DNA of 64,000 nt from Nemertoderma westbladi (taxonomy: Eukaryota; Animalia; Xenacoelomorpha): NCBI GenBank assembly GCA_032718475.1, contig JAUCBJ010008288.1:1-64000 (forward strand). Reading direction: 5' to 3'. The position numbers were made by a program, and so were the translations under genes. The notes under the pieces were generated by a model, which was not told the DNA's origin, searched no databases, and was given only the letters and a program-made list of their open reading frames with translations. The stretch's first letter is position 1. Every line of letters begins with the position of its first letter. This document shows positions 19,021-63,063 of the stretch, piece by piece.

Positions 19021-19148
19021 ATCTGTAACTCTGTATTGCAGGTCTTCCCAGTCTCACGGAAGTGTCTTTAGTTAACAACCCAGTATCTGTAACTCTGTAT
19101 TGCAGGTCTTCCCAGTCTCACGGAAGTGTCTTTAGTTAACAACCCAGT
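19021..19148 (+). repeat. Perfect 64-bp tandem duplication spanning the last splice acceptor of LRRC9
   Basis: atctgtaactctgtattgcAGgtcttccc..aacccagt at 19021-19084 and 19085-19148. Confidence 0.95.
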
Positions 19149-19587
19149 TTCTCGTCGAATGGTCCATAGACCTATCCTTGTGTTCAGGATTCATCAACTG
19201 AAAATATTAGACGGAATAGTTATTTCCGAAGAGGAACGCCAGAGGGCGCAACTTTATTTCTCGGAGCAAAACGTCGGCCCCTCCTTTGAATCCCCTCCAC
19301 CTTCGTTGCCAGGGTTACAACACCAGCAGCATCATTCAACCTCCAACCCATCGCACAACCAACCAATCAGAGTGACCAGCGTGCAACTAGGTTCCCAACC
19401 GGGCACTCATTGGCCAGCGGCGTCGGGGCCAATTAACCGCAATCTGATTGGCTACCCGCAGTCCACCCAGGCCTTCTATCTCAACCTCCCGCGTACTGGC
19501 AGGGATGCGAGTTCTAAAAATAACCACGTGAATCATTACGAACCCGGAACAGAGATACAGAGAAACCAGAGACCGCGTAAATATTAA
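19106..19587 (+). CDS. LRRC9: LRRC9 last coding exon (LRRcap and disordered tail)
   Basis: Acceptor ttgcAG at 19105, phase 1; GLPSLTEVSLVNNPVSRRMVHRPILVFRIHQLKILDG; TAA stop; AATAAA at 19701. Confidence 0.85.
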
Positions 19588-35558: not shown

Positions 35559-38500
35559 CTATATCTCTGAGACTGATGAATCGCTATTCGAAACATCCTC
35601 GTAATATTCTTTCAGTTTCTCACGGGATCGTATTGCGGCTACATGATGGGGTTTTGTAGTGTTAACTTGCGGTGAACGAATTGGTGGGACAATTGGGACA
35701 TCCGATAGATCCACTAATGGTGAAACGGGACACTCTAGAGGGTACAAGAGTTTGATAGGGCGTTTAGAGAGTCCAGTTTGGGTCTTTACGGATACAGAAC
35801 GTATCCATCCGTCTTTACTAGGAAAGAGTTCAATGGCCTTGCCGAGAGGCCATTGCATAAGGGGTCTACGGGAACCAACTAGGACGATATCTCCTACTTT
35901 TGGGATATGTTTGGGTTCAGAAGAATTCCATCGATGGAACTCTCGTAAAGAAGTTAAATACTCATCTTTCCAACGTGACCAGCAATCAGAAATAAGTGTG
36001 ATAACACGCTGATGACGTTTAGTAAGGGATCGTCTCTCACCATAAGAAGGATCTTTATTAAAAACCTTATCGATGAGGGGTAAAGGTAACCCAGTTAGAT
36101 GACGACCATATAGGAGTTGAGAAGGTGTCAGGGGTAAGGGCTCGTCCCTATCCGCAGTAACGTAAGTAAGGGGTCTGTCATTCATGTAAGCTTCAACTTC
36201 GTAGGCTACAGTAACCAACTCTTGATAAGTAATATAAGCTCGACCTAACACTTTCTTTAGTACAATCTTAGAAATACCGATCAACCGTTCCCAGAATCCT
36301 CCCATCCAAGGTGAGGCAACTGGAATAAAAGTCCAAATCATACGTCGTGATAATAAATAATTTTGAACAGTTGCTGTATAATGTACAGTCTTTAGATCTA
36401 AATCAGCTGAAATAAAGGCGGATTGGTTGTCGCTTAGCAACCGAGACGGACAACCAGAACGAGCGGTAAAACGTCGTAATGCGAACAAGAATGATTCAGT
36501 AGAATTACCTGGCACTACTTCTAATCGTACAGCTCTAACAGTAGCGCAAGTAAACAAAGCTATGTAGGCTTTGGTGCGATCTCTGAGTAATATATGACCA
36601 GTGTAGTATAAGCCAGTAGTTTCGAATGGAACGGAACCTGAAACCCGAAACTCAGGAAGTGGTGGAGGTGGCGGTACTGGATAAGGTCGACCAATGACAC
36701 GATTACAAGTCGCACACGGACGAATAATAGAACGAACTCTGTCTTATCTGTGGAATCCACCAACGCTGGCATAACTGAACGATGGTGTCAGACAGACCGC
36801 AATGGAAATTAAACTTATGAGTGGATAATATAATCAGTTCAGTGAAAATATGTTTGCTTGGAAGTATCGCGGGGAACTTAGTTTGCCAAGGAATATTAGA
36901 ATGTTCAATACGACCTCTAGAACGTAGAATATTGTCGTCATCTAGGAATAACCATAACTGACGCTCTAACGGAGGTATTTTACCTTTCTCAGTACTAGAA
37001 TAATTAAGAGATAGTAAATAATTGCTCTCTTTACTAAATATATTGCTTTGTACGCGTCACAATAGGAATATCTCTGCTAATACGATATCGTTTACTGTAA
37101 GTGGACTAGAAAGAACTTTCCCTCCTCCGACCGGCGCAATTGTGGGATATACAAGTTTGTGATTGTTATTAGTAACACTATCCTTTAGGCGGTGAACAAA
37201 ACGCAATACCAATGCAGTAACACGTAAGAGTTTATTATAGTCACTATAATCTGATATGTTGATGACGTCATCAACATCAGAACCTGTTTCATCCAATGTA
37301 GGTAAAGAGCTAACTGTGGTATCCATAGCAACCGTTTCTTCCTTGAAAACAATTTTTTGAATTGGCCAATCAGAAACGCACATCAACCAGACCGGCCCAC
37401 AAGTCCAAAAATCGGAGGACAATAATTTGATAGCAGTAATACCTCTAGTTAGCATGTCTGCCGGATTGTCCTTAGTTGGTACATAGCGAAATATTGCATT
37501 AGGACATAGTTGGTGAACTTCATCCACACGATTCTTTACATAGACGTTATTAACACAACCATTCATTGTCCAGTGTAGAGCTATTTCACTATCTGACCAT
37601 AAAAAGATATTGGCTGGAATGAATTGGAAACTAAATACCTGTGTAATGTACACCAAAAGTCTTGCGCCAATGGATAATGCAGTGAGTTCGAGTTTGGGAA
37701 GGGAAGGGGCTTTACACTTAACGGGGACAACTTTAGCTCTAGCTATGACTAAGTCAGAGTTTTGGTTGTTCACACAATAAACAACTGCACCATATGCCGT
37801 TTTAGAGGCATCGCAAAAACAATGTAAACATGCTCCATTACTTAAAGTCAATTGACGTTTGACTGAAAATGATGAAAGTAAATTGATATCAGAAACTTGT
37901 TTTGACCACTGTGTTGCAATATCGTCTGGGATAACAATATCCCAACCGATATTTAATTTCCACAATTGTTGAATTAATATACGTATACCAATAGTCACAG
38001 GTAATAATAAACCTAACGGGTCAAATAATTTACCAGCTGAACTAACAATGCCTCGCTTAGTAAAATAAGCATCGGGTGTTTTAATTTCGCGGGATGGATA
38101 ACCCAATTTATCGTTTTCGATAAACCATTTCATGCCTAAAATAGCCGGTTCATTAGTAACTACTTTAGGTCCATCATTATTAGATTGTATAAGTTCATTT
38201 AACTTTGGAGAGTTAGTTATCCATTCCCTTAAAGGGAATCCACCCTGTTGTAATAATTTGCTACTTTGTAAATAATAATCAATTAAATCGTTCTTGTTAT
38301 CTGACATACCATGTAAGTTATCAACATATAAATTACGAATAATTATGTCAGCTATCGGCGAGTCACTTAGTTTCAAATGGTGTCTAACAGTAGCATTTAA
38401 TAAAAATTGACTACAAGTAGCACCGAATAAAAGTACTCTAAACCGATATGTAAGTATTGGACTACTTGGATCAAAGGGATCCTTAGGCCATAAAAATCTT

Positions 38501-41073
38501 GTTACATCTCGATCAGATGGATCGGGACCTATTTGTAAAAACGCTTTCTCAATATCACTGATAGAACAATATTTGTTCATTCGAAAGCGTAATAAAGCAT
38601 CACATAGCATTTGGTTTAGACTAGGACCGGTATGTAAACAATCATTTAAACTTGGAGATTTCGAATTTGCTTTCGAACTACAATTGAAAACTATTCTCAA
38701 TGGAGTAGTTGATGAAGTCGGTTTGATAACACCGTGATGAGGCAAATAATGAAATTTAACATTATTATTATCACCTAGCACATTATCGGTAAACCTACGA
38801 AAATCGACAAATTCCGCGGGCTCAATAAATTTTCGGTTTAATTGTTCCCTAATAATATTATCATAACAAGATAATAAATCGCGTGATTTACGTAATTTAG
38901 ATAATATACTTTGCAAACATTTTGCAGCTAATGAATAATTAATTGGTAAGATTGGGTGATTTGACTTCCATGGTAAACTTGCCGTGTATTTATATCCGTC
39001 GAACTGGATACTATTTTCGAATTCGATTAATGTGGAATCGTTAGAAACGTCCTTGGGTGCGTCGTAACGAATTCCGATTGAATCCAGACTCCATAACCTC
39101 TCCATACTCGCTGAGAGATCGTCTTCATCTTCGTAAAAAGGTCTCGATGTCCCAATATGAAGAGCTGTAACAACTGATGTAATGCACTCTTTATCCTCGG
39201 ATTGGGTTGAGTCAATTTGGCCCAATATTACATCCCCTAAATTAGATCGAAGTAAAGACACGCCCTCTTCTATGGAAGGAATGTTTATGAAATTAAAACA
39301 TTGGTCAACTCCTAAAACTAATCCAAGATCGGGTACGTTATCACCGCGAATTGGATCAGCTAAGTTAACGCCGCGAAGTATTAAGTGGTCGATGAGATCC
39401 GATCGTCCTGGCGTCGCTAAACGCATTGGTAGCGAGTCTACCACTGCTGCAGAAACTTCGATCAATCCGTCTGATGTAACCACTGAAAATTTAGTAATAT
39501 CATAAGGATCCATTTCGCCACAATGTGTAAAACTATTGATAGCTAAGTATGTGCGAGATATTATGGTTAAACCCAATAACTCGACGATACTCCGTAATAT
39601 AAAAGTTCGTTGTGATCCTGGATCTAATAACGTCCGAACGTTATAGGTTCGAGATCCATGATTATAGTATTCAATAGGCATTATGGCCGTTGGTAACAGT
39701 GAGGAATGTTCAGTGCAAACTGAACTAGAAACAGATGGATTCGTTTTTTTCTTTGGTAACCGATCTGATGAAGAACTACTGGAATAATGTGCGTGTAAAA
39801 CCGAGCGGTGCAATCCTCCGCAAACGTAACACCGACTAGGTCTTGGTCATTCGTTCGTAGAATGGCCAGACTGTAAACAGTTTGCGCATAGATTCAATTC
39901 ATCAGTGCGAGACTTCCGTTCGTCACTAGTTTTATAACGATTGCAATAACGGACACTGTGATCGCTATTGCAGAAATAACAACGGATTTTGTATCTCAGT
40001 TTTGGTTTTGTAGAATTCATTACACTCGAACCAAATGAACCGACCGAGCCGCCATGTGGAGACGATTCCAAATGACTACCGAAGTCGTTGTGTTTCTTTG
40101 AAGTATTATTTGGTTTACCTTTATTGAAGCTGGAAAGGTCCGTATCAAAGGCTGATAATTGTTCAATTTCCTCTTGAAGCGCTTTCCGAAGGTCTTCAAT
40201 ATTCCAATAAGTTGTTCGTGCAGCGCGATTTATATTGTCACGAATCTTGGTAGGGAGTTTTCGGAGGAGGATTTCAGCGAACACGTATCCGGCTTCTTCC
40301 ACATTTCCTCCTAAATTTCGAATTCCTCTTAGTTGGGCTTCATATGTCGCTCGGAACGTGGCTAAATCACGAGCCATAGGCTTCGGCTCATCGATGTCGA
40401 TAATTATATGTAAACGAGCCCGGAGGATTAATTGAGGTTTACCAAAGGTTTCTCGGAGTAACTCAATGGCTTCCTCGTAATCTTCGTTGGTTCGCTGGAA
40501 GTTTGCTACGAGTTTGGCAGCGTTTCCCGAAAGTTGCCCTTCTAAATACGAGAACTTCGCAGCCCCAGCGATCTCTGTTCGTGAGTGAACAGTGTCATTG
40601 AAACGATCCCAAAAATTTGGCCAATCGACTGGATTCCCTGAGAATGACGGCAGCTTCAACACGGGAAGTTTCTGCGGTTTCATCCCGATACCGATATGGG
40701 ATTCCACGTTTGGTGGGTGAACGTTACTACCCGGTAGCGACTCGGCGCGACCCTTCTCGTCTACAAACTGTTCAGCTCGTCGAATAGCCGAATAGATACT
40801 TACTAGATCTTCTTTGGAAGACGTATCAATCTCGGTAATTATACCGTCCTCGTCATTGGGATCCAATACCTGTTGAATTCTTTCACTCAAATCCGCCAAC
40901 CTCGTCCTTTGTCTCGCCGTTCCAGCAATGACGTCACGTATAGAGTCAATGTCTGGAACAGCTACCAACTCTCCCGACGTTCCGAACATCAGTCCATTTA
41001 GTTGGTCGAGTAAACGAGTAACTACGGATCGATGACCACGACGTTGATTTTTAAGAAATATTAAATCTTCCAT
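35559..41073 (-). pseudogene. BEL/Pao gag-pol polyprotein with two in-frame stops (39847, 37057) and a frameshift near 36740
   Basis: Gag LPSFSGNPVDWPNFWDRF, three Cys/His knuckles, protease LLDPGSQ, RT YLPHH..LYVDN, RNase H FCDAS, integrase SDNQ..GGFWERLIG. Confidence 0.95.
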
Positions 41074-41136
41074 AGCTGGTTAATAGTAGAATACAGTTAG
41101 GCCTAATGTGTGTCAGAAAGTTCCGGCTGTCCGGTG

Positions 41137-43648: not shown

Positions 43649-45693
43649 CTGTAAGAAAATAATTAATTGGTATACTAAAATTATCATTGGTCGGAGTCCG
43701 ACACGTACTACGACAGTCGGAGTCCACCACCAACTCTTACAATTTGACATTTACAATACAGAAGCGTAAAATAAGAGCTTTGGAGGTAAAACCTATTTGA
43801 GTGATTGATTTGTTTTAATTCCGGTACAAAGCTAATGGAAGTCTATGTCGTGATGCCATGATCGTCCATAATCATGAACCAAAGATATGTTCACGGTTTG
43901 GGGCCTACATGCAGCTCAATGAAGTTGAGCGTAGTGGAATTAATTTTATTGAGGGAAAAGGACGGTATGTTTGCTATGTAGACTTGAATGGGGAAGGTTG
44001 ATATGATGAGTGATAATTCCTTACCCTGGCAGTAATAGACACATATAATAAGATTATATATGTACATTATAATAGGAATAAGGCAAATTTGAATAGATCA
44101 ATGTCAAGCCACTCTACTACATAACCAATAGAATTGTTCAAGAATTCAAATAGAAATCCATTGGTTGCAGTATTAGGAATTTGGAATCATTTTATTAGTG
44201 TCTGTTAAGTGAGATGTATACATCAATGTGAGATCCGTTTGGTCCAGATAGATCAGTACAATAGTCATACTGTATATCTAACCGGTTGGTATTTGGAATC
44301 ATTTTATTAGTGTCTGTTAAGTGATGAGATGGTATACTATCAATGTGCGATGCTAGATAGATCAGTATAATAATCATATATCTAACCGGTAGGTGTACAG
44401 GATAAGCACGTACATATGGTGTATTTCACATACGGTATTATAAAGGTATTGTAAAAGCTTTTGCGGATATAATCAGTCCCCTCGCCCGCAAAGTACCGTT
44501 ATAGGTGTTTTAACGGACATAAAAGTCATTATTCTATATGGGTGCTTTGGAGGACATGGTAAGACATAAAACCCGCAATGCGTCAAATACTCTAGCACAG
44601 CTTAGCCTTGATGATTTAGATTACGACATCTAACAGCTGGTTGCTGGCATGGAAACGGCCATTGGACACATGGTTCTTTGTTTAGCTTAACAGCCAATCA
44701 GAGCGATTTTTTCAGTCGATGTGGAGATATTTGGCAGATCGTGCTAGGAGTGTTCAGTCTTACTGTTTTTTCTTGATACTGTTGTGTTGTTTCTATCTAG
44801 GCCAGGAACACCGGCTCTAGAGTCAATTCGTTACAGACTTTAGAAGAAACATTAGTAGGCTTAGATTATAGAACGTATAACTGTTATCAGTGCAACACGG
44901 CACATACATTGTCATATCATATCTTAACCTACCGTCTTAATGCTTTTTACTGTTGTTATTATTTTGTATCAGTTGGTTGAATATTATTTGGAAAACATCT
45001 ATAAAGAACCCAAATTTCCCAATTTTCTTGATACACTACAGGTTAGAGAGACAGGTTACATATAGCGATTGCGACTTATATTATCGTGGTTTGTAGTGAG
45101 TTTAATGCTATTTGATAGGCACTACATGAGTCAATTGCTGTTCTCTTTATATATGATAAAATTCATTGACGGTCGGCAGATTAGTGTGCAGCATTGTGTG
45201 TTTCCGGTAGTGTGCATGATTGTGACTGATAACTAAGCATTTCCTAAAGAATGCGCCTCATACGTGAATCATAAGCCTTACCGACTTACCGTTGTGTTTA
45301 GTATAAGTCATATCTCTGTTTACCTAGATAGAGCGCCACGTCCTAAAGGAACTGTTAATATTTCCCGAAAGTGAATAATATTAGTCAGAAATTATTTATT
45401 AACGATCAATCTAATAATACAGTAAGCTTACACTGCAATAACAATCTAAGCCCTCAGAATCCAGTCTCCCGGGTATATCCAGCGGGTGAATGGACGCGCA
45501 CTAGGCTGGCTTCTGCTAATGTTGTGTTTATTGGTATTAAATATTTGTCAATTTCTAAAGTCTATTTATAAACCAAAAGACATATAAATTTTGGCAGGTT
45601 AAACTGCAAAAGGTCTTCAAAAGCGCGTACAATAACAGTTATAGTCTTTATTGCAGTAAGCAATAAAGTTGAAAGTACCGGTCGACCGGTAAA

Positions 45694-46570
45694 CCTGAAC
45701 CGGTACTGCTGTAGGTCCGTAGGCCTAACTGCCTGAACCGGTACTGCTGTAGGTCCGTAGGCCTAACTGCCTGAACCGGTACTGCTGTAGGTCTGTAGGC
45801 CCAACTGTCCGAACCGGTACTTCCAGTATAAGTACATTAGTATTATTCGATTTTGATTATTGTATACCGGTAGGTCTTAGTATTTAATCAGGGACTGCAG
45901 CCCTGGTTTTTATTGAGATTTTACTTATTTCTGTCAGTTTTATTTACATGTAAGTTAATATTGAGCTGAAGACGTGTAAGTCTGCTCAGATTATTCAGAT
46001 AACTGTAGGCCGGACTGTTGTCGGATTGTTGTTGAGTCTGGAGAGATTGCGGCGTGTGTAGAGTTTGTCCGATAAAGTGCCAGTTAGTAAGTTGGGGCAG
46101 CCAGAGCTGTAAGGTCAATCCCCTCTTAAAGAATAAGCCGTACTACCGTGTTAGAACGCATACTAACTAACCATTTTGGAATCTGCATATACTGTAGTTT
46201 ATTTAGGCTTGACAGTATTCTGCCAGCGTTTTGGCCTGTGTTTGTTTGTGTGGTCTGTTCAGGTACCGTAATAGTTATTACTCAGATATTTTGTAGGCTG
46301 GATTGTTGTCTAGCTATTATTAGGTCTGAAGAGATTGCTGCGTGTGTAGAGTTTGTCTGATAAAGTGCCAGTTAGTAAGTTGGGGCAGCCAGAGCTGTAA
46401 GGTCAATCCCCTCTTAAAGAATAAGTCGTACTACCGTGTTAGAACGCATACTAACTAACCATTTTGGAATCTGCACATACTGTAGTTTATTTGGGCTTGG
46501 TGGTAGTCTGCCAGCGTTTGGTTTGTATTTTGTTTGAGTATTCTGTACGGGTAGCGTAATATTTATTATT
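45694..46570. repeat. Repeats in the 2.2-kb leader of the giant element: 38-bp unit x3 and an about 288-bp direct duplication
   Basis: cctgaaccggtactgctgtaggtccgtaggcctaactg tandem; about 45990-46280 repeated at offset 288. Confidence 0.85.
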
Positions 46571-47862
46571 CAGAGTTTATGCGATTATTCGCAACATTCA
46601 ATGTCCCCAAGTTTATTCCTACAGTAATTGTGCTTGTTACACATACCGTTATAGTTAAATTAACCCCGGTACTACACGGGCTGCTTGGCGTAGGTAAAGA
46701 CTGGTGACTTTGTGCTCCGGTCACTCCAGCAGATGCCGTGGTTCTTTTAACTGTTCAAGTATATTTAACTGCTGGTTATCTGTTTTTAATAAGTACTTGT
46801 ACCTAATTTAGGGTTTAGTGTACAGTGCTTTCCGAAGGTATTAGTGTGTAGGCAGTATATTTGTGTTGTAAAGTGGTTAATAGGCACGTTGGATCTGGTA
46901 GTCCGCGGTAATTAACTTCCAGGTAGGAACACTCCATGATACATAACGTAGTACCTATAGCGATACGGCTATAGGTCGTCAGGCGGTGGTATTTTCCTAT
47001 CTGGACAGTGCAATATATTTACTACTACTTATTATTTTCAAATACCGTAGTACCCTGTCCGTTGTAATAACCAGAATTCTAACCCATTGTTAGACTGGTT
47101 TGTAGACTTCTTTTAAAATTACCCTAAAATTTCATACGTAATATTTTGTTGTGTTTAATTAGAGAATTAATCTCACCGTATCGTAAGTAATTTGTAGTAT
47201 TAAGTAACTTAGGTAAATTAGAATTATCTGTTTTAGTGTCCCATAAATAGCACTTCACTGAGAGCGCACAGCTTCTGTGTAGTGACTTCCCCCAGAAATA
47301 ATAATATTTATTTCAAATATTGACAAAACCCATTTTAAACGGGTATATAAATATTATAAATCAACTCAAATGATTTATAAATAGTAGGCCTGCCATACAA
47401 CAACTAGGTCTCAATATCAGTTGGACTACTGCTTAAATAACGGTGATAAAGTAAGTTAAAGTAACTAAGTAACCTTTAAAATTCAGAAATTCAATTATTT
47501 AAATAATTGATATACCGGTATTCACAATAGGCCTATTATCTTTATTTCTATAAATTTAGGCTGAAATTATACCGGTATTCTGTAATTAATTCTAGTCCAG
47601 AATTATACTTATATACTATAAGTGTCAGCTGTATACCGGTATTCACGATAGGCCTATTATATATTTATATATATTTGTGCTAAAATTATATACCGGTACT
47701 CTGTGACAAACCTAGTTTACAATACTTCTATATATTATAAGTGTATACCGGTATTCTAATATACTGTAATAAATTACCGGTACTAGGCCAACGGTCATAC
47801 TGAATTACTAGACTTGCTTTAACTGTAACTATAGCAGTAAGCCTTCAACTGTATAGCTAAAC

Positions 47863-50800
47863 ATGTCTGACACCCAGCAAAACCTGTCAGACAGTCTAAT
47901 CGATACAACCATCTGTGACACAGATAGGAGTGTGGAGCGATTAAGAAAGGAGTTCAGCTCACCTCCTACTGAAAGAAAGGTCATCCCTCCAGTAGTAGTA
48001 TCAGACCCTAAGCTAATCCAACACCGTAGGTCTATCATCGGCACTCGGGCCCAAGTCAAACGGAACCAGGAAGCAGATGTCCAACAGCAGCAACATCCTA
48101 GTCAAGAAACTTGTTCCCAGCGACCCGATAGCTCCAGTAGTTCGGATACTGTAGAGCTGACCCCCGAACGCGGAGTGCAGATGGCGGCTACAGCCTACTC
48201 GGATCCCCTTCTCACCCTTCCTGCCGCAGTGCTAACTACTATATTGATTGCGGTGGAGGAACACCAAGCCGATTGGGCGAGAAGTAAGCGAGCGACCCAA
48301 GATAGTTATGCGGGATACGCCAGGGAAGAATTGATGTCTATTGTCGAGTCACAATGGAACTTTCCCGGACCCGGACTCCCGTTAGATTTGTCCGAAGCTA
48401 CTTGGGAAGATATACACAGGATGGGAGTAGCTAAAGACACGATGGATCCAGCTGTTTGGAAGAGGTCGGCAGCAGGATATGTGCAGGGATTCTTTGGCTC
48501 CTTAGAGCGATTAGAAGAACAACTGTTTAGACAACCCCAAAGACCTCAAGAGCAGGAAGAGCTGCTATATCAAGTACGCGAAAAAACCCTACGCACAAGA
48601 AACGGCCCAGTGGAAATCCCAGCTGGCGGAGCGACCAACCTATGAAGAATCAACTGATGCCACCTTTTCTCAAGAGGAAAGCGAAGTGACCGCAGAGAGA
48701 CCGCGAACGAGAGACGCCATCGACATCTATCTGTCAGACTATCAACGTTTCCTAGGTAGGATGAAGAATTGAGGAGACGACTGGCTGGACTTCGCCCCAA
48801 TAGTGAAGAAGCCAAGCTTGTGTTGGACTCAATCGATGAGGAAATGTTAGCTGCAAACCAAGCTAAATTTGATGAAAAACTCCGCCTCGCTAGAGTCCAA
48901 GAAGAACAAGTAAAGAAAAGACGGATAGAGGACAGAAAGGCAGTAGCAGCGGCGAAAGCGGCAGCGGCAGTGGAAGAGGCGAAAGCGGCAGCGGCAGTGG
49001 AAGAGGCAGTAGCAGCGGCAAAAGCGGCATCGGCATGGAAGCAGCCAAAGCAGCAGCAGCAATGGCATTGGCAGACGCAGAACAGAGAGCGTCTGAAGAG
49101 ACCACACAACTGGAGTTGGAAAATCTTCAAGAGACGCAAGACTGCATAAATAAACAGTTAACTGCTAGTCAAATGCAGATGAGGAGTAGATCTACTCCCA
49201 AGCGCCAAGGATACACATCATCGGAGGAAGGCGAGACCACCGATCCTGAAGGCGGAGTAAATAGATCTCGTCTAAGCAGGCGTAGAAAAACATCTCACCG
49301 TCACAAATTGCCTGATTTGCCCCCAGCGGTTAGAAGACAACTAGCTAGCACAGACTTAGGTAGTACAGAACCTACAGAACAAATTATTCAGGTCAAAAGA
49401 CTCCCTACAATAGTTGATGAGCCTGAAATAATTAGGCCTGTCGTTCCCAAAGCCACTCCTGTGCTAGAGACCCCTGTACTTCCAGAGCTTAACTCTAAAT
49501 TTCCTTTACACAGTACTACACTGCCTGTACCCGGTAGTACAGTCCATGAGAATATCCCTGTCCTGGAAGCTGAGAGAGAAATCAAAGATTTGTCTCCCGT
49601 CGTCCCACGTCAGCCCGCTACAATGTTGGCGACTCCCGCTTCGGCGGTCGAGTGGGTAGAGGAGGGACGGCGGGGGATGAGTCTCCTGCTCGGACAGATG
49701 CAGGAGACTGTCTACCAACTTAAGGGAACAGTAAGGGAAAGTAGGGCAGAATTGCAAGAAGTGCAGCAAAGCATCGCGCTAGAACGTGACAAATTAGTCA
49801 ATATACAAAAGGGTATACCAATACACCCAGTAACATTGTGTCAACCTGTTAGGTCTGAAGTATTACATGCGCAAGGTGTGGAGCCTACACGCATCTATAC
49901 TGCTAGTGAAGTAGAAACTCCTATAGCAAACCCTATTAAGGGTGATTATAAACCTGTTGTTAATGATATTCCCTATAGACCTGATAATGATCCGAGAAAT
50001 TTATATACCGATAATTCGATATTAAATAACACGATGGCCCAAGAAAGCTTTACGCGTCAGATGGTTAGAACAGAAGCCCGCCAAGCGGTCAAAGTGGGAG
50101 AGATCGTCAAATTCAATGGGGATGAGATGAAATGGTTACCTTTCAATGAATATTACAAAGATAGCATACAGAAATCTGTACTATCTAATGGAGAGAAACT
50201 TAGGTTCCTCATCAAGTGCTTGGAAGGACCTCCCAAGTTAATGGCGTTAAAGTTTATTGGACATCCAGAAGGATTAAGACAAGTTTGGGATACATTAAAC
50301 ATCAGGTATGGTAACAAGGATAACATAGCTAAGTATTTGTATGCAAAATTAGTAGCCCCCCGAAACTTCCTTAGTAGCGGGATTATAGAGTTTTCCGATG
50401 AGATTCAGGAGATCTGTAGACAATTGGACTGGTTAGGTAAGTCTCATGAATATCAGAGTTCCATGGTTATTGGAGCAGTAGTCTCTACTTTACCAAAGGG
50501 TGGAGTATGTACACGCTGGGACAAGAAAGTGTTGTATATGAATGAGCAGCAACGATGAAGCCCTACCATGGCTGATCTCATGTCCTTCTTAGATGGTGAA
50601 GTAAAACTACAACTCATCAAGCAGTCCAGAGAGAAAACATCAGAAAATAAGGTAAGTGAGAAACCCGTTTCTAGGAGAAGAGTAACACCGGTGTGCTACA
50701 CTGACGACGGCGAAAGCCAAACTTCTCAAGAAGAGGACAGCGGGAAAGACACTGATCGATCTTACTACGTTGACAAAACCTCAAAGGAAGTAAGTAAATA

Positions 50801-53800
50801 CAAGGCTCGAACCAAAGATAGGAGAGAACAGGTTGCCAAGACTCCTCCTCAGTCTCCTAACAGAATGCACGGAAGAAAGCCCGAAGAAAGAACGAGAGTG
50901 CATCAAGTTACCCAAGGTAAAGTGAGTAACATAAAACCTAACTGTGCGCTGTGCGACGGGACCCACCGTTTGAGTGCGTGTGCTGAATTTCTAAAGAAAT
51001 CCCTTGTAGACAGACGTGCAGTCATGTGGGATAAGCGGTTATGCTATAATTGCCTCAGATCAGGACACCAACGGCGAACCTGTTACTCCGACGTAAAGTG
51101 TGCAAAATGTGACGCGAAACATCACATCTTGTTACACAGTGAGTTCGAACGAAACAACCCGAGTAAGGTAAGTGAGCCCGAACTACATGTCCAATTCAGT
51201 GATGTAAATGACACTGATCAAGAATCTGAGATGGAAGGATTCTATACTGACGAATTCTCCGACGCCAACGAATCCTGTTATCTAATCATTACCGCGGTGT
51301 ATCGAGCACTTACTTATGAAAAGGACACCGACAATGAGTTCCCCCCAACTACTTTTGCCAGACAACCATCTTGGAAAGCTCCAACTTCCAATGTAGGAAT
51401 CAGAGAATTTCCTGTAGTGCAGGTAAGAGTTCACGGTCCTAACAAAAGTTACATAGTGAACGCCCTCCTTGACTCCGGCAGCACAGGAACATTCATCGAT
51501 CAAGAACTAGCCGAAGATATCTTTGCTGGACAACCCAAATTCCGGACTAAATTGAATATGTCAGGAATTATGCAGGTTTGGAAATCTACCCTAACGGCAG
51601 ACTACTATGTAGGTGTGTTGTCCACCCCCCAGGATAAACTAGGAGCACAAGGTATAAGGTCGGTAAAAATGGTGGCTATAAAGAACTTCGCTACTACCCA
51701 AGCAGACCTTTATAATTGGGACGAGGATGAGAGCATCCAACATCTTAAGATACCTCGATTCCAGACAAGATTATCCTGGAGTGCAAATACTCATCGGCCA
51801 AAATGCGCATGAGGCGCTCGAGACATTGGAGAAACGGCCTGCTCAACCGCAGCCACTGCAAACCTATGCGGTAAGAACTAGAGTAGGTTGGTACTTTACT
51901 GGCCCTTCCCACAAAACTCTCGAAGAGAGAATGCCACGAGAACGAATATACCAAGTAAACGATTGGGAAGTGGAGAGCAGTGAGGTGGACGAACTAACTG
52001 AGGGAACACCATACTCCTCAGATAATGACGACATCTACCAACTCTTCGATGAAGAGAACACAATCGACCTACTTATAGAAAACAAAACGTGGAAAAACCA
52101 GGTGAACCTATGTCAACTGATTCGCCCATCGGGACCCATTGATTACAATGACGAACTAAATGATGAGATAGAGCGATACAACGCTAGAACTCGGGACGAA
52201 CTCGCCGTACGATTCTTTACTCAAGAATTAGTAGAGCCCAATTCATACGATAAGGCCCTATCGATAGAAGAAGAAAGAGCCAAGCAAATCCAGGAAACAA
52301 CTACCCGTTTTTTAAAAGACCAAGGTAGATATGAAATCGGCCTACCATTTCGAAAACGAGAACCTAGATTTATAAATAACAGACCCTTGGCAGAGAAAAG
52401 AATCACTCAATTGCATCGACGCCTTATGGCTAATGCTTCAGCTAAAGAAATGTACCAAACTCAGTTGAAGAAATTTATAACAAAGGGATACGCGGAGTGA
52501 GTACCGGAAGGAACACCAGTGACTGAGAGAACGTATTACTTAACACATCATTACGTTCCCAAACCCAGTAAACCCCACGAAGTACGAGTCATATTCGATG
52601 GCTCCGCTCTATATATGGGCCAATCCCTCAATTCCGAGTTGTTACCAGGACCCAACTTACTCCAATCCTTGTTGGGAATACTTTTGAGATTAAGACAATA
52701 TTCCATCGCGTTCGCCTCCGATATAGTAGGAATGTTCTTACAAGTCAAGGCGCTGGATAGAGATAGAGACAGCCTGAGATTTCTGTGGTGGCCTGAAGGA
52801 GATCTCAACCAAAAACCGGTAGAGTACTGGATGACCATCCAGGCTTTTGGGATCATATCAAGCCCTTCCAACGCCTGCTCCGTGGTGCGGACCACTGCGA
52901 ATGACAACCGAGACGCCTTCTCCAAAGAGGTGATAGACAACATCAAGCGTAATATATACATGGACGACAATTTAAGGTCCCTTCCATCAGTAGAAGAAGC
53001 CATTGATGTCTCGAAAGGAACGGTAGAGTGTTTGAAAAGAGGTGGATTTCGACTGACGAAATTCACCAGCAACTCCCGTGAGTTTCTGGAAGCGATACCG
53101 GTAGAAGACCGAGGAACTAAAGACCTAGACTTAATAAAGGACGATCTTCCAGAAACCAAGACGCTTGGCTTGAAGTGGGACACTGAAAGAGATATCCTGT
53201 TTTTTCAGCTAAAACAGCGAGATAATCCAGTTCGGACCAAACGGATTTGTTTAAGTATCCTGAGCACTTATTTCGACCCATTGGGATTTATTAGCCCAGT
53301 TATATTGATTGCTCGGAGTTTAGTACAACAAATGTGGCTTGAAAACCACTCGTGGGACGATCCGCTTAAGGGAGAACTGTTAAAGAAATGGATGAAATGG
53401 GAAGATTCTCTACCTGCCATCGAGAGCTTTGTAATTTCCCGTGCATATTTTGGTCATGTTCTTCCTACGTATTCCTATCAACTCCATGTGTTTGGAGACG
53501 CCAGCGACATGGGAATAGGTATAGTAGCATATCTGCGAGTCGAAACTCCTGATGGAATCAAAGTCGCCTTGGTTACCTCTAAGGCATTGATTAACAACAA
53601 GTTAAAGGTTCCTCGAGCGGAGTTAAAAGCGGCTTTATACGCTACAGCCATCGGCCGGAACGTAACAGAACAAATCGACTATCCATTGGAGAAAACTGTT
53701 TATTGGACCGACGCTTTACTCGTGTTGGAGTATATAACCAATGAAGTCTGTCAGTTCAGCGTTTTTGTTACTAACAGGGTAGCTATTATTCTTAGTCGCA

Positions 53801-55834
53801 CAAAGATCGATCAATGGAGACATTGCCCTGGTACGATTAATCCAGCCGATATCGCCTCCAGGGGAGCAACTCCACAGGAACTGATAGATACTCCAGATTG
53901 GTTGGGTGGACCCGACTTCCTGAGCAAGGAAGAGGATGAATGGCCTCCTCACCTTACTACGGCAGAGATTAGACAAGCCAAGGGAGCGGAGACAGTCAAA
54001 CCTAAAACCCGGGCGAGTAAATCGAAGTTATTTAAACCGACTATCGATCTATCTGTATTACATACTTCCGGAAACGATGCTTCGGATCCACAATCCCTCG
54101 CCACAATTAAGTCTGTTGTGGAAATTAGAGATAGAGATTGGAAATCTGGAATACCAGACGTCTCACAAGGAATCTCACCCCTGCTGCAGAGAGCAATGCA
54201 TCACTACAGTTCCTGGAATCGGCTCTGTAAAGCCGTCACATATTTAAGGAGATGTTTTCATCATCACTACTCCAGGACGAAGACCATTAGTGATACCGCT
54301 CCATTGACATCTGCGCAAGTTCATGTTATTGAAAATTTACCCAAATATAAGAGAAAATTTAAAGGAGAAAATTAGTTACCAGGAGCATGAAGAAACCAAT
54401 AAGCAGATACTGAAACTCCTGCAATGCTATGAGGATTCCGATAAGTATTTCCTGTTGTTGAGAAATCCGCAGATGCGCTTAAGGGATCGATTCTCTAGCA
54501 CAATGATAGATGGGTTAATACGTGTTGGAGGAAGGCTCACCAATGCGCCATTATCCTTTGACACTAAATTCCCCATACTCATTAGAAATCTTGAAGTACA
54601 AATCAAGATGATTGTAGATGTTCACAGTAAACTTTATCATGCTGGTAGAGAACGAGTTCTTAGCGAAATTCGAACTCGCTATTATTTTGATAAACCCCGT
54701 AGAGCTCTGAACCAAGTTCTTAGGAACTGCATACCCTGTAGGAAAGCATTCAGTAGGCCTTTAACACAGCGAGAGGCAGAATTACCTAGGGAACGAGTAA
54801 GCTTCTATGAACCACCTTTTACTAATACTGGTGTAGATTTATTTGGCCCTATTGAAGTATATTGTGCTAGGACTATAGTCAAGAAATGGTGTGTCATCTT
54901 CGTATGCATGACTTGTAGAGCCATCCATCTCGATATGGTGAACGATCTATCTACCAACAGCTTCGTCTTAAGTTTACGCCGACAGATCGCTCGCTTCGGG
55001 ATGAGTAATACCATGAGATCGGATAAGGGAACGAACTTCATTGGTGCCAACAACGAAATCCAGGCTTACATGAAGGACTGGAACCAAAGACAGGTGGACG
55101 ATCAGCTAAGGATAACAGCGTCTAGCTGGACCTTCAACGCCGCCGACGCCCCTTGGTGGGGAGGAAGTTGGGAGAGATTAATTAGAAGTGTCAAGACCGC
55201 ATTTCACTTTATAGTGCCATGCCGCGCGTATCTCACCGACGAACTTTTGCGGACGTTAATGGAGGAAATAGCTGCCTATCTCAACGAGAGACCGCTTATG
55301 CCAGTCTCATCGAGTCCCGATTCCCTGGAAGCGCTAACACCCGCGCACTTCCTACTGAAGAAACCTGTAGCCATGCTCCCACGATCGGAGATTGCCGACG
55401 GAGACGAATACTGCCGTCGAACTTGGCAACTTATGCAGTTGCTATCCCATCGTTTCGCTGACCATTTCGAGAAACATTATCTGCCCACGCTACAACTTCG
55501 AACCAAGTGGTTTGCGCAGCAAGAAAACGTCAGCGCCGGAGATATGGTGCTTATTGTAGATTCAGACCTCCCACGTAAACGGTGGCAGACAGGTCGTATC
55601 ATCGAGACTCACATCTCGGATGATGGTTTAGTACGCTCGGTAGAACTCGTCGTCATGCGGCGTAACTTCAAGAAGCCAGGCATAATCTTTGAGACGCAAC
55701 AACTCAACCGCCCAGTTGGTCGTTTATGTTTACTGGAAAGAGACAGAGAACTCTCCGGAAACTATGGAAGACAAGACACTCTTCCCACGACCACCTCCCT
55801 AATTCCTCAAACATCTAGGGACTCCCCAACGTGA
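47863..55834 (+). pseudogene. BEL/Pao gag-pol (about 2,650 codons) with long N-terminal extension; several frameshifts and TGA stops (50556, 52498)
   Basis: KFNGDEMKWLPF gag, knuckles CALC..H..C, CYNC..H..C, CAKC..HH..H; ALLDSGS protease; YMDD RT; FGDAS RNase H; GVDLFGP, SDKGTNF, WERLI integrase. Confidence 0.95.
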
Positions 55835-57456
55835 TACGTCTGGAGTGGGTGCATGACTATATTATTTTATCTATTTTATTATATTTTATATGTGAACATT
55901 ATTATGTACTTTATTATAATCGTTTTTATTCAATTTTATTTAGGGGAAGGTTATTTTAGATTATTTGGTAGATTAGTGCAATATATTAGTGTTTATTACG
56001 TAATTACATATATAATATATATTTAGTGTGACGGCGAGAAATAATTTTTTCTGTTTCCTTACTGTCCGTATCATATTATAAATACGTGACTACAGTAAGA
56101 TGAAATGTCCGTACTTATTAAAGTACAATAAAGCCACTACTATATTCAAGTATTATTGGTAGGCAGAGTATTAGGAATGCAAAGTTCAGATCCTCGTGTC
56201 TCGGCTAAACCAAGCTCTGGGTAGACCTTGGAAACGACTTGCCTCTTCACACTGACATTGCTTCGTGCGATATTGCTCTTCTACCTTATATTAAATAATA
56301 CATATAGTAGCGTGATGTCCCTCTAACAGTAGCGTAAAAACGCAAATAAATCTGTTAAACCTTTTTGACCATCTGTAATTCTAGTCGATTAAGATATCGC
56401 GGCACCCACCGATATACTTGAAAGACAAATTCTAGAATCAGTGGTTAACGTCCCCAGACAAGTTCTGGAATAAATCGGTGCCCATTTTAAATATTAATTT
56501 AATATTTATTAAAATCTGTAAAATTCAGATCCTTTAAAATTTCTAGTCAATTAAGATATCGCAGCACTGACCGATACTCTTAAAGGACAATTTTATAGAA
56601 TTAAGGATCCTCAGTCCCCAGACATGCTCTGGAATAAAAATTGTGTCAATTTTAACATCAAATAATAAAATTCATGGGAATAAATTTAAATTCATATTTT
56701 AAATGAATTTCATAAATTGTCATTTTGTGCAATTTATAACCTTCCCAAAATTCCATTAATTAATAGATCATGGGAGCGGAGATTCATCCTATTGAGTGTA
56801 TTAGAGTGCGAGAATCTCCAACATATAGTCAATAGCCGATAAAATTAATAAAATCATGCATAAAGAGGATATTGACAATTAAAGAATTACTATTAAATAG
56901 CATTCCAGATCTGTATGCATGAGAATTACCCTAATTCTACCGCTAGCTTTCCATAATGTCACCATAGCAACACCCACGCTAGAATTAGAAGCAAGTTAAA
57001 AGAACAATAGAAAGCTTGTCCCATTGCATAGCATAGAGAATACATAGCACACTGTTAGTATCCAAGGATACAAAGTAATAACGTGACATTCTGGAAGGCA
57101 CTGACTAACGGACAAATGGCCTGTATGTGTACAATTGGTGACAGTTGTGTGGAATTTGTGCATTTATAGGTGAATGTTACTGCTAAAGTATGTTTACAGT
57201 AGCTAGTCGCAATTGTAAAAGTAGCCCAACTCTCCTATAGAAAGAACCTCAAGTGGATCCAAGCCTTTGGGACGGACAGTGGAGTGACTTGTGCCGGTTA
57301 TCGTTGTCGTGCTGTTGCTACATGTTGGCGTAAACACCGCGACGACGGTACATCGGCGCTGAGAATCCCACTGTCCGGGGGCAAAGAGAGGTAGGCAGCG
57401 ACGCCCGCTCGCCTAAACATAAACTCATTTGATATTAATAAACTCAGATAGCAGAT

Positions 57457-60400
57457 ATGACGGAGTTGATAGAAGATGATCTTGGTATTAGGGAGCGATA
57501 TACTCTACCTTTACAAGCATTTGTGGATAGCTTAATACGCGGTGAAGCCGATCCAACCATTACAGAGGACGATGGTCGTTATATCGAACCGCCGATGTCC
57601 CAAGAGCAACTTGCGCGTGAATTGGATTATCGAAAATTCACCGCTCGCTATACGAATCGTAATGGTACGTATATGGACTTCTTAACTACCGGCCATCCTA
57701 TCGATTTACATGATACGGACGATGTAGATACAGAGAGGGAAATGGTTCTATTTAAATATCATACCCAGCGGAGTCGTAACGATAAACCGAGAATAGATCA
57801 TGAAAATTCTATTCGTAATAGACTGGAAAGAGAAAACGTTGAAGAACCGGATAAACGCATCGACTTCAACGAATACCTAGAATTTTTGAGAGAAACCTAT
57901 CTCAACATCGCCAGTCAGCAGAACCTAGAGACACGATATCCTCAAGGTATACATCATGACCCTGTGGTAGAACTCAAACGGCTCTATTTCACTATGATGT
58001 ATCTTACCGCCGATCGTCCACTACCTGTTATCCCGGATAGTTTTGAACAAATGGAAGAATATTGCAAAACTGGAGAACGATCACCCGCGTTTCCTCTGCA
58101 GGACGTACGTCTTTGGTATTATTGTGACGAATGCCCTAGACCCAACCAACAAACTGAAAGACATAAACATCCGCGGAGACGTTGCGCTAAACACAGCTTT
58201 ACGCGTTACACTTACGGGAGTTTCGAGTGAAACCTGTTCGACGTACCACCTACGATCGCTCGTCTTAAACGATCACTGAATAAACCCATGATCAGAGTTC
58301 CGGAATACTCGGTCAGGCCTCCTCATTCCCTAGTGAGACCTCAAACTCTTGATCCTAACAGTATCACTGATCCTCCCGAACTATATTCCCTGTTCAAAGA
58401 CTTAGTGTTACCCGAACAATTAATCGGTGGTGCTCCGGTAGTGGGTTCGTTAGACATTCGCCCATCCTACTTAGCCGGATTGGGACGCGGGCAGCTAATA
58501 TCGCCCTTTGATCCTTACAATCGTCCAGGATTAAATCCGATGCAACCCGCCACGGAAGTCGAGGAGAGCGTTATAAGAAACGCTTTAGACGCTATTCGAC
58601 AGAAGATCGGAAAGGGAACACAAGATTGTTTAGAGAAACGTAAATTACAACAACAAGTCCAATCGGTGAAGGACTTAGCCTTGCCACAGTTCGATAGAGA
58701 AATCCAAAACCTCGAGGAGGACATCGAGCTTGGACTCACATATTCTCTACAAGAATTTTTAGATGAACGCTTACAGAGACAAGCGGAAGAAAATCTACTC
58801 GAAGAGAAACACACGAAAATGGACGAGAGAGAAGAAGCCGCTTTAGCCCAACCTGAAGCTCAAATCCTTATGACGGATCTCTACTCTAAAACCGTCCGTC
58901 ATCCCTTGATGATTCCACATTTCGGAGACAAACTCTTCGCGATGATACAACCTCAACCGGTTGATATCAGTACAGGATCGCAAAATCTTATCGCTGACGC
59001 CCCTATGTTACAGCGTCCGCCGATCGAGGCTGCTCGTGTTGATGGTATACTCGTTGAACCTCCGGACAATCGAGCGGATCTTGTCCGTCGTATGGTACAC
59101 GATGTCAACATATGCGCTAGACCTTTACAGAACTCGTTTTATGGGATTAAAGACCACCCTTATTACGTTAATCTGACTCAAAATTATATGGTAAAACCAG
59201 AAGACCCGACGCATAATTTAAAGTTTCTACCACTAATAAATCCTCTAGACATTGTCGAACTCGAACAATTGCAGAAACATCTGGATCAGTTAGTAAAGGT
59301 AAACTCATTTAGAAAACCATATAACATTTCTCGAATCGAGAAGGATATAGAACCTCCTTATAATCTCGATGGATTTATTAAAACTCGATTAGTCCATTGG
59401 AATCTAGATGTATTATTTGAAGAAGAGAAAATACAAAGATATGGAAATGTGGAGACGTATACCACTCGGCACATGAAGTATAGTGATCTCCCTGACGCTA
59501 ACCAATGCGCCACCTTGTGGCATCCAGTAGGAATGACCCTAGAGAACGCCACCAAGGAGTGGAATGAAACTCTTAATGTTATTGAGATGTATGGAGTTGT
59601 CACCTACGATAATGAAGGTAGCGTTCCGGTCGGAGAACTAGGAACTACGCGCATGATCCACATACGTGGATTAGCTGGTTCTACCCACGTGTTTACTCGA
59701 GCGTGTTCCGACGTGATTGATTATTCCTTTGAAACTCTCACCGAAACACAAAGGAATCTCCGACATGGACAATTCGAACTCGCGCAGCGTTACGTCATTG
59801 ACACCGAACACAAACCGGCCATGGGTATCGATGGATCGATGTTACCCCAGCCCGTACTCGAGATGTTGTTCAACGAAAGAATCCTTAAAATCGGCTCAGC
59901 TGTTTATGGAGATCTCCAAAACGACTTTCGGAATATGGAGAACATTCCATACCCTTTCGTTGATACTCAGCTGATTGCTCCCTGGGCAGAAGGTCGAGGT
60001 TTCTTCCGCACCATGTATGCTAATACGTCTAGCAACATTACAAAGGTGCAACGAACTTCCATCGGACATCTTGCATTTCAGGAATATGGATGGAATTTCA
60101 AAGTCGGAAATCCCATCAACTATCAACAAGTATACGGAGATCATTATTCTCGATTATACTTTGATGGACCATTGACCGCACCTGGCGCCGTGTATAGCTT
60201 CATGAGTGTTCCACTCCGTCCCTCCTTAGCTATCTACACGATCTTTGAAAACACCGCACTTGCCGGTTGGCTAGCCGATGTGTGCAGTCGTACTATACGC
60301 GCCCATCCATTAATACTTGGGACCAAACTCGCTAAGCTAGATGAACATAATAAATTCATCCGCTTCGAATGTTTCCGGCGATTTTTAACCCCGTTCCGCA

Positions 60401-61709
60401 ACGTGGATAGCCAATTTAAAGACCGCGCTTTGACCAAGCTCAGCCTAAGAAACTCAGCTGCAGAGAAGTTGGATAGCGCTGGATTCGCCATTTTCAAAGA
60501 GATTTGTATATCGAACTTGCACTCCTCTGTTATACAAAGACCTCGAATCCCCACAGGTTATTCTGTCGTGGAAATTCAGACAATAGGTCCAATTGAAGAG
60601 ACAGACACGCCCACCTCAGCTATGCACTTGGAAGACGAACCAATATGTCTAGAATCTGAGGAGATTCAGCCTATCGGCCCCGGAACAGCGACAACGATTA
60701 CATCATAGAATGGTATCAAGGTCCACAGTGTCTCACTGCGTACGATTATCGACATGCCAACTATGTTTCTAGGCAACGTTGTCGGTTATGCGCATCGAGA
60801 GACCATGATACGCCCATGGACACAAACGTCCGCTGTTCCTATTTCCAAGAACAACCGACGATGGAAATTTATTGCGCATATTGCAGACTTAACAACTTGC
60901 ATATTTTTGCGGTTTGCCCTCAATTTATGACTCAATGTCACCATTGTCAACTAAAGGGACACGCCAGTTTCGATTGCCCCTTTAATCACGATTTGGAAAG
61001 CGTAGATGAAATGATCACACTACGTTACATCAGAGCTTGGGAAGCGAACGCTGATTTACATTGTGATTCGCGCCATCGCTATTATCCTGGACGCGCTTAC
61101 GAAGGAGTTTATGCGTTCCATCCTTATCTATTCGCTTCTGTCGAACAGAAATCACGCATATCGAGTTACGAACTACTGAAGCGCGTCGGAGAATGTATTT
61201 CAACCAAGTTCGTACGCAAATTTCTTAGGAGTGTTAATCCTAGCGACCTTCATTCCTATAACTTAATCAATTATATCCGTCAGGATCCGGACTATGGAGA
61301 CTTATTTGTTAACTCACACCCCGAGTTACAGGAAGTATATCGACGGCCTTACGAATACCGAGCCCGCGAACGCGAGTTGGAAAGAACCATTAAACCCAGG
61401 AGGTTTCTGACTGCCTATGGTCCACCCACGGCTCTCGTTCAGACCACTCGTAAAGGACCCGTAAGAGCGGCTGTCCTAAAACGCGCTCTCAAGGCCGTTA
61501 GACCCCTCTCCCCAGACGTTGATGTCAATCAACCCGGTACTTCGACTGGCGGATACACCGACCATAATCCTACACCCTCTGATGCAATCATATTGCACCC
61601 TTCACCCCGGAGTTATAGCCCTCCTTGTAAAGTGGCTCGCCCCAAAGAGAAAAGGACTCTGGCCAGCTTTAAAAAACTGCGTAAACGCCGTCCGCGCAAG
61701 AAAGACTAA
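57457..61709 (+). CDS. Accessory ORF of the giant BEL element: coiled coil, DEDDy-like 3'-5' exonuclease domain, three CCHC-type knuckles, basic tail; split by one TGA and one frameshift
   Basis: 57457-58230 and 58288-60708 share a frame with only TGA 58228 between them; the 60816 frame is open from 60660; VVTYDNEG, LPQPVLEMLFNERILKIGSAVYGD..FVDTQ, PLRPSLAIYTIFE. Confidence 0.75.
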
Positions 61710-63063
61710 CTGTTTAGAGTATTTACATATATTAGAAACTGTGATTTTTGTATATTTATAGACTTGAATCCCATTTTCTGGGAGCGGTGTAAAAGCTTTT
61801 GCGGATATAATCAGTCCCCTCGCCCGCAAAGTACCGTTATAGGTGTTTTAACGGACATAAAAGTCATTATTCTATATGGGTGCTTTGGAGGACATGGTAA
61901 GACATAAAACCCGCAATGCGTCAAATACTCTAGCACAGCTTAGCCTTGATGATTTAGATTACGACATCTAACAGCTGGTTGCTGGCATGGAAACGGCCAT
62001 TGGACACATGGTTCTTTGTTTAGCTTAACAGCCAATCAGAGCGATTTTTTCTGTCGATGTGGAGATATTTGGCAGATCGTGCTAGGAGTGTTCAGTCTTA
62101 CTGTTTTTTCTTGATACTGTTGTGTTGTTTCTATCTAGGCCAGGAACACCGGCTCTAGAGTCAATTCGTTACAGACTTTAGGAGAAACATTAGTAGGCTT
62201 AGATTATAGAACGTATAACTGTTATCAGTGCAACACGGCACATACATTGTCATATCATATCTTAACCTACCGTCTTAATGCTTTTTACTGTTGTTATTAT
62301 TTTGTAACAGTTGGTTGAATATTATTTGGAAAACATCTATAAAGAACCCAAATTTCGCAATTTTCTTGATACACTACAGGTTAGAGAGACAGGTTATATA
62401 CATATAGCGATTGCGACTTATATTATCGTGGTTTGTAGTGAGTTTAATGCTATTTGATAGGCACTACATGAGTCAATTGCTGTTCTCTTTATATATGATA
62501 AAATTCATTGACGGTCGGCAGATTAGTGTGCAGCATTGTGTGTTACCGGTAGTGTGCATGATTGTGACTGATAACTAAGCATTTCCTAAAGAATGCGCCT
62601 CATACGTGAATCATAAGCCTTACCGACTTACCGTTGTGTTTAGTATAAGTCATATCTCTGTTTACCTAGATAGAGCGCCACGTCCTAAAGGAACTGTTAA
62701 TATTTCCCGAAAGTGAATAATATTAGTCAGAAATTATTTATTAACGATCAATCTAATAATACAGTAAGCTTACACTGCAATAACAATCTAAGCCCTCAGA
62801 ATCCAGTCTCCCGGGTATATCCAGCGGGTGAATGGACGCGCACTAGGCTGGCTTCTGCTAATGTTGTGTTTATTGGTATTAAATATTTGTCAATTTCTAA
62901 AGTCTATTTATAAACCAAAAGACATATAAATTTTGGCAGGTTAAACTGCTAAAGGTCTTCAAAAGCGCGTACAGGTATTACACAAACACCTTCGGTGGGG
63001 GGTGGTGGGTGGTGGTTATGAGTTTGGTGCGTTTGTGAACGTTTTATAAAACGTCAATAGTAG

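Follow-up and report, generated by a model that had tools for sequence, protein, structure and literature searches.

What protein is encoded by a gene of about 1,400 codons that lies between the integrase (IN) of a BEL/Pao retrotransposon and its 3' long terminal repeat (LTR)? The question is raised by a stretch of 64,000 nucleotides from Nemertoderma westbladi (Xenacoelomorpha; assembly GCA_032718475.1, contig JAUCBJ010008288.1, positions 1 to 64,000 of the forward strand), called the window here, in which an 18,524-bp element at 44450-62973 carries such a third gene, ORF3 (open reading frame 3). The original prediction, made from the letters of the window, was of a DEDDy exonuclease and zinc-knuckle protein in place of env. 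In our reading, to which we assign a probability of about 45%, ORF3 encodes an RNA-binding exonuclease that trims RNA 3' ends and likely weakens the silencing of the element.

ORF3 spans 57457-61709, or 1,416 codons in three open frames (pieces A, B and C, of 257, 825 and 349 aa; Table 1). As had been proposed, the pieces join into one gene, broken in the window copy by one in-frame TGA (58228) and one frame change, within the overlap at 60660-60705. Stop-free runs of such length have chance probabilities, at the given composition, of 8e-7 (A), 2e-20 (B) and 5e-9 (C); the pieces are not chance ORFs. The gene is intronless, sits between IN and the polypurine tract (PPT) and stops 78 nt upstream of the 3' LTR, and its exonuclease-like domain is itself unbroken. 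We considered whether the two breaks represent programmed readthrough or frameshifting. Against this, the divergence of the LTRs leads one to expect, for a gene of this length, 1.8 indels and, taking 4.5% of substitutions to create a stop, about 0.5 new stops, and one of each was seen, which is about the damage that neutral decay since insertion predicts; gag-pol is damaged alike, with two stops and several frame changes; and the overlap holds only weak CCC-type heptamers.

That the third gene is not env was borne out, because no transmembrane segment was found in ORF3 (highest 19-residue hydropathy, 1.21). Its acidic N-terminus is, by inspection only, without a signal peptide, and a crude coiled-coil scan was uninformative. 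The original prediction had allowed for a nested insertion; no flanking or terminal repeats and no termini of its own were found in 55801-61800 beyond short duplications in the spacer. Lacking both a transmembrane segment and terminal repeats, ORF3 gives no sign of being env or a nested element. Piece A also has a Cys/His cluster (58123-58194; C-x2-C ... H ... C-x2-H), possibly a further metal-binding motif.

Within piece B, the motifs that had been named are all present: D59608 and E59614 in ExoI, D59911 in ExoII, and Y60235 in ExoIII with a Glu four residues on, so that the acidic set reads D-E-D-E rather than DEDD. Their proposed order, that of the WRN/EXD/Mut-7/RNase D exonucleases, is statistically firm in the ExoII region, whereas ExoI is marginal and ExoIII is placed through one homologue. 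A profile built from ORF3 and that homologue, the 648-aa protein P0001, scored 41.3 (E 1.8e-5) over 74 columns against 80 bacterial WRN-like proteins, the best of 60 column shuffles used as the null reaching 22.1, with the bacterial set itself reached through matches of the same two-protein profile, so that the two are partly dependent. Scores were much lower for Pol I and RNase D sets than for the WRN-like set, and ORF3 stayed outside the top rows when profiles of Pol I (26) and of RNase D (2) were used. In an ordered-chain block search, of which only the ExoII score and the ExoIII choice are used here since a 70-residue gap limit left out the ExoI at D59608, ExoII scored 45.6 of 60.5, against 31.4 for the best shuffle, and the ExoIII site was the one chosen by the chain. 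Moreover, the ExoII Asp is invariant in 41 of 41 alignment rows, and an NCBIfam scan of 59536-60300 gave RNase D models as the two best of 3 matches (E 0.0021 and 0.016). By sequence comparison, the ExoII half is clearly related to the WRN/EXD/RNase D (DEDDy) exonucleases, and we regard this assignment as firm. The placements of ExoI and ExoIII are supported more weakly, mainly via P0001. The ExoI block ranks D59608 first within the 825-aa piece, and against ExoI and the next two strands of P0001 the D59608 register scores +14 and +15, as compared to -9 and -1 for an alternative register.

P0001, known from protein alone, on one 9,449-bp ENA contig, was the only match among 1.84 billion representatives (E 1.1e-5). 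It aligns with ORF3 over the ExoII-ExoIII half (31% of 150 aa) and has a clear ExoI (ILSIDVE), a DLKAD motif, the same YxxxE (YIYCEN) and three downstream knuckles, which align with piece C (pairwise E 7e-4) and match nucleocapsid structures (E ~1e-4); its matches to PF01612 and zf-CCHC are weak. Judged by these alignments, P0001 shares the exonuclease-plus-three-knuckle layout of ORF3. Zinc knuckles had been part of the original prediction, and three knuckle-like motifs are present in piece C, but only the third has the canonical CX2CX4HX4C spacing (the others read CX2CX4HX9C and CX2CX5HX4C), and the Pfam zf-CCHC_3 match is weak (E 0.18). In the Atlas, P0001 leads to clusters of PF01612, among which a euglenozoan PF01612 + zf-CCHC cluster ranks first at 0.86, under the 0.9 bar and a lead only. 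Matches to the two-protein profile came from 3 of 201 Bacteroidota genomes; PF01612 exonucleases account for two of the three, and the third is, by inspection, not an exonuclease. From 149 metagenome candidates the profile picked out 4, which are of WRN type. WRN-type exonuclease genes were seen in metagenome contigs (L003:466-1612, also L001, L002 and L004) that are eukaryote-like, apparently fungal and intron-split. No homologues were found for the exonuclease region among proteins of length 453-1,444 or for the two-row profile at lengths 125-555, and P0001 retrieved only itself at lengths 356-1,134. Viral contigs, genome contigs, plasmids and phages contained no relatives, metagenome contigs searched with P0001 contained none, and PHROGs gave unrelated weak matches only.

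The element belongs to a diverse, multi-copy family. Parts of the ORF3 stretch are present in 6 of 7 listed sequencing runs, from four studies; the contigs placed on 55500-62100 number 45,756, 12,327, 545 and 228, cover 30, 30, 30 and 29 of 30 bins (the last bin, in the LTR, is empty in run X5) and range in likeness from below 90% to above 99%. Variation was counted in 40 of 1,275 variant rows and 12 of 73 indel rows. Among these, 26 variant rows fall in ORF3, 16 of them at third codon positions (p 0.003); by piece, the share is 8/10 in A, 3/9 in B and 5/7 in C when read in its own frame, versus 1/7 when C is read in the frame of B. Only 1 of the 12 indel rows lies inside ORF3, which makes up 64% of the stretch. 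In run X4, a contig that bridges the frame change has a net length difference not divisible by three. These counts are signs of purifying selection on ORF3, and it seems quite likely that the gene is kept by selection in the family. They speak against ORF3 being a neutral passenger, whether a host gene captured recently or an insertion nested in the element, that decays without function. Such a history could account for the broken window copy and for the many internal deletions in other copies, and no single contig, these being short, joins pol to ORF3 in another copy, where the linkage is deduced. We nevertheless consider it very improbable, given the third-position bias and the avoidance of indels among the listed rows, the lack of flanking repeats or termini in 55801-61800, an intronless gene ending 78 nt before the LTR, searches that gave no close cellular homologue, and damage to ORF3 no greater than that to gag-pol.

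Intact family members would likely encode a 3'-5' exonuclease with three RNA-binding knuckles, and a separate sub-genomic RNA would serve to express it across the 1.6-kb spacer. In TbRND, the RNase D of Trypanosoma brucei, the RNA is held by CCHC knuckles and its 3' end is trimmed at a two-metal DEDD site (PMC7797062; cited, like every paper here except PMC8742986, from the part of its text available). By analogy, the knuckles of ORF3 would grip single-stranded RNA and feed its 3' end to the two-metal site, and RNA binding and trimming by the ORF3 protein are likely. The targets would most probably be host small RNAs or their precursors, the trimming of which would weaken silencing of the element. 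Mut-7, EXD1 and Maelstrom are silencing-pathway members of this fold (PMC5408684). Because the nearest animal relatives of the fold act in small-RNA silencing, and because ORF3 looks accessory rather than essential, counter-silencing is the leading target, with an even chance, in our estimate, that the small-RNA pathway is what the protein acts upon.

Several observations weigh against this reading. The NCBIfam scores are far under their cut-offs (TIGR01388, 17.4 bits against 299), the Pfam check of the central region gave no match, neither did a sequence search of the PDB, and 198 of the 201 Bacteroidota genomes gave no match to the two-protein profile. Statistical support is limited to about 74 columns around ExoII: the ExoI margin is thin (7.7 versus 7.6, with 7 of 100 shuffles as good), MAFFT favours the other ExoI register, without Asp, which ranks 71 and fits P0001 worse, and the ExoIII block by itself lacks significance (68 of 100 shuffles do equally well). 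AlphaFold gave a pLDDT (predicted local distance difference test) of 30 from the single sequence and of 50 with a partial alignment. The second model, for which alignment rows covered the central part only, so that its ends are untemplated and not confidently folded, is confident only where templated and has no ExoI strand, although helices lie at the places expected of the pre-ExoI and ExoIII helices. A Foldseek search with it placed DEDD nucleases in the top rows, none at E <= 0.001, a result that is circular; the structural check that had been suggested yielded no independent fold. Piece B alone has no third-position excess among the rows listed, the 26 variable sites rest on 40 of 1,275 rows, and other copies delete much of ORF3, with a 2,804-nt skip (57825-60630) in 3 of 4 runs. 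The paper on rotifer elements reports, in the text available, no clear link of DEDDy ORFs with copy number (PMC5408684). The ExoIII acid is Glu in ORF3, and TbRND that loses the ExoIII Asp keeps trace activity (PMC7797062). Among the papers listed by a search of the literature, none was pertinent to Glu variants of ExoIII. A full DnaQ-like fold of the central domain is, in our judgement, very likely.

The ExoIII residue bears on a different role for the protein, as a catalytically dead or weak DEDD-fold module that binds RNA in the manner of EXD1 or Maelstrom and serves as adaptor, chaperone or decoy for element RNA or silencing factors, without cutting. Both ORF3 and P0001 have Glu in place of the ExoIII Asp, long insertions precede the ExoII helix and ExoIII, one ExoI register lacks the Asp, and inactive RNA-binding DEDD derivatives act in the biogenesis of PIWI-interacting RNAs (piRNAs) (PMC5408684). 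However, all four positions are acidic in two proteins that are about 30% identical, which dead domains would not need, and the register without Asp scores badly. We rate a dead module as somewhat unlikely, and lean towards the D-E-D-E site being catalytically competent.

The site at which the element would prime reverse transcription raises yet another role for the gene. The first 12 nt after the 5' LTR (45632-45643), a candidate primer-binding site (PBS), match the reverse complement of LTR positions 427-438 at every base (12/12 at offset 0). Dinucleotide shuffles of the LTR were as good for 12-nt pairing in 4 of 3,000 cases, none of 16,060 internal 12-mers had such a partner, and TGG does not occur in the 30 nt next to the 5' LTR. 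The pairing of PBS and LTR is predicted at 0.78-1.0, in a fold that was started at that site, which is thus favoured by design. A 9-bp hairpin (~45646-45668) and a palindrome lie downstream. In elements of the Tf1/Sushi type, the transcript begins at the LTR site that pairs. The window element has a candidate PBS complementary to an LTR-internal site, and the pairing is a candidate for self-priming geometry. Conceivably, then, the nuclease serves the element's own replication, trimming the self-primer or other 3' ends of element RNA or cDNA. The absence of a tRNA-type PBS and the 12-nt pairing, a geometry requiring that a primer end be made, would fit such a role, but self-priming Tf1-type elements, which use RNase H cleavage, are not known to need a gene of this kind. 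Moreover, copies with the exonuclease-like domain deleted exist, and the other BEL element in the window has no long ORF after its integrase. Even though 3'-end processing of element RNA has been proposed for the rotifer ORFs (PMC5408684), we find a role in replication quite unlikely. Self-priming is known from Tf1/Sushi, Tcn1 and certain copia groups of plants (PMC6317226; PMC3601003), and a literature search, within the texts available, found no report of it for BEL/Pao, to which the candidate site would be a separate addition.

The carrier itself is a BEL/Pao member, atypical in its size and priming site. Both the matched LTRs and the target-site duplication (TSD) that had been described around ORF3 were found: self-comparison identified an LTR pair that is 99.2% identical (1,176 positions match, and the differences are 6 substitutions and a single 4-nt indel), with TGTA...TACA ends and GGTAT on both sides (a 5-bp TSD). 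The assignment to BEL/Pao held as well, the Pfam scan giving Pao-type domains above cut-off (DUF1759, E 5e-13; Peptidase_A17, E 1.1e-36; DUF5641, E 9.2e-21) in the BEL/Pao order of gag, protease (PR), reverse transcriptase (RT), RNase H (RH) and IN. The AT-rich leader (45632-47856, 2.2 kb) holds a 298-bp duplication (45990-46286 and 46277-46574, 88%) and short tandem repeats, and upstream of the gag frame lies a 262-aa frame (47857-48645) without a match in the Pfam scan, probably the N-terminus of gag in another frame.

Table 1. Features of the BEL/Pao element and its third gene, in window coordinates.
Feature	Position	Strand	Remarks
Left TSD	44445..44449		GGTAT
5' LTR	44450..45631	+	1,182 bp; TGTA...TACA
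LTR site, candidate self-primer	44876..44887	+	12 nt; twin at 62214-62225
Candidate PBS	45632..45643	+	No TGG; not tRNA-type
Upstream ORF and gag through protease	47857..51812	+	DUF1759, knuckles; broken by stops and frame changes
pol	51682..55834	+	RT, RNase H (Peptidase_A17), integrase (H2C2, DUF5641); broken
Non-coding spacer	55835..57456		1.6 kb; AT-rich (35% GC); short internal duplications
ORF3 piece A	57457..58230	+	257 aa from ATG; ends at in-frame TGA 58228; no family match
ORF3 piece B	58231..60708	+	825 aa; same frame as A; N-terminal half without family match
Exonuclease-like domain, WRN/EXD/RNase D type	59550..60290	+	ExoI D59608/E59614; ExoII D59911; ExoIII YxxxE from 60235
ORF3 piece C	60660..61709	+	349 aa; other frame; three knuckles; basic tail from 61671
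Three zinc-knuckle-like motifs	60780-60836, 60873-60917, 60936-60977	+	In piece C
Polypurine-like tract	61780..61787	+	GGGAGCGG
3' LTR	61788..62973	+	1,186 bp
Right TSD	62974..62978		GGTAT

Elsewhere in the window, the second BEL/Pao element (35559-41079, minus strand; DUF1759, Peptidase_A17 and DUF5641) runs into 49-bp repeats. Inside the 49-bp tandem array (30187 to ~35000), a 604-aa ORF (31348-33162, minus strand) has no Pfam match at 0.001; by eye, we take it to resemble a non-LTR RT with a C-terminal endonuclease. A host leucine-rich-repeat gene made up of a few long ORFs, with LRR families over cut-off, lies at 11572-19587 on the plus strand.

How does this element compare with known systems? 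With the Belpaoviridae (Semotivirus) it shares LTRs, gag, the PR-RT-RH-IN order, the Pao-specific Pfam domains, a PPT and a TSD (PMC8742986; PMC3118150). At 18.5 kb it exceeds both the 4.2-10 kb given for the family by the International Committee on Taxonomy of Viruses (PMC8742986) and the 15 kb that was the upper bound of a 2011 survey (PMC3118150); as such elements lie above the size limits of surveys, they would have been filtered out. It also differs in having a third gene that is not env and in lacking, at its LTR, the 18-nt PBS of tRNA-Arg/Gly type, a trait that is typical rather than defining. Among exonucleases, ORF3 resembles the WRN-exo/EXD2/Mut-7 (Nibbler) subgroup of PF01612, which profiles prefer to the Pol I exonuclease, in its LP...LKIG....D and hDT/L motifs, its Leu-Gly helix pair and its PL-x6-Y-x3-acid spacing, and differs in two insertions, YxxxE and scores under the family cut-offs. 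Going by these features, ORF3 would work like a DEDDy exonuclease-knuckle protein while standing outside strict membership (YxxxE, scores under cut-offs, a putative fold).

The layout recalls TbRND, in which tandem CCHC knuckles likewise come after a DEDD exonuclease and serve to hold single-stranded RNA (PMC7797062). TbRND, however, is a cellular mitochondrial enzyme with a canonical DEDD set and four knuckles on a short linker (PMC7797062), whereas ORF3 has three knuckles, one of them canonical, about 160 residues downstream, and a long unique N-terminus; the likeness is likely due to convergence. One may picture a giant, self-priming BEL/Pao lineage that has dispensed with env and with priming by tRNA, and whose active D-E-D-E exoribonuclease, with its tandem knuckles, trims or destroys host piRNAs or small interfering RNAs. 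This fuller scenario is doubtful; if true, the protein would be a transposon-borne counterpart of TbRND and Nibbler, and an enzymatic suppressor of small-RNA silencing in an animal LTR retrotransposon.

The original prediction rightly stated that DEDDy ORFs occur in rotifer elements: such ORF3s are published for Juno, Vesta and Athena/Terminon of bdelloid rotifers (PMC5408684; PMC6431247; PMC5718144; PMC6338049), and one of these papers, with reference to the rotifer work, describes DnaQ-like domains as well-known accessories (PMC6338049). It had also stated that the architecture was not known in BEL/Pao. Our search found neither a DEDDy ORF3 nor an exonuclease-plus-CCHC protein reported for BEL/Pao in the open literature, with Repbase, GyDB, subscription papers and supplements, which may hold entries, outside its scope; the available text of PMC13524379 has 0 mentions of exonuclease. 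The ORF3s of Juno, Vesta and Terminon likewise are not env, follow pol, show RNase D/WRN/mut-7-type homology, lack transmembrane segments and have an altered acidic motif (PMC5408684). Their carriers are the Juno and Vesta LTR clades and Penelope-like elements and their motif is DEED (PMC5408684), whereas the carrier in the window is BEL/Pao and the motif D-E-D-E. Compared by description, the window gene is set apart by its length of about 1,400 codons and its three knuckles, the term CCHC occurring 0 times in the available text of PMC5408684. Since the exonuclease-like domain is unbroken and the family multi-copy, the question raised there, whether such ORFs are active and on what (PMC5408684), becomes directly testable. 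The element extends exonuclease third genes from rotifer retroelements to BEL/Pao, where the gene is built differently, with knuckles, YxxxE and a length of about 1,400 codons; if ORF3 acts on small RNAs, it would be an enzymatic counter-defence of an animal retrotransposon.

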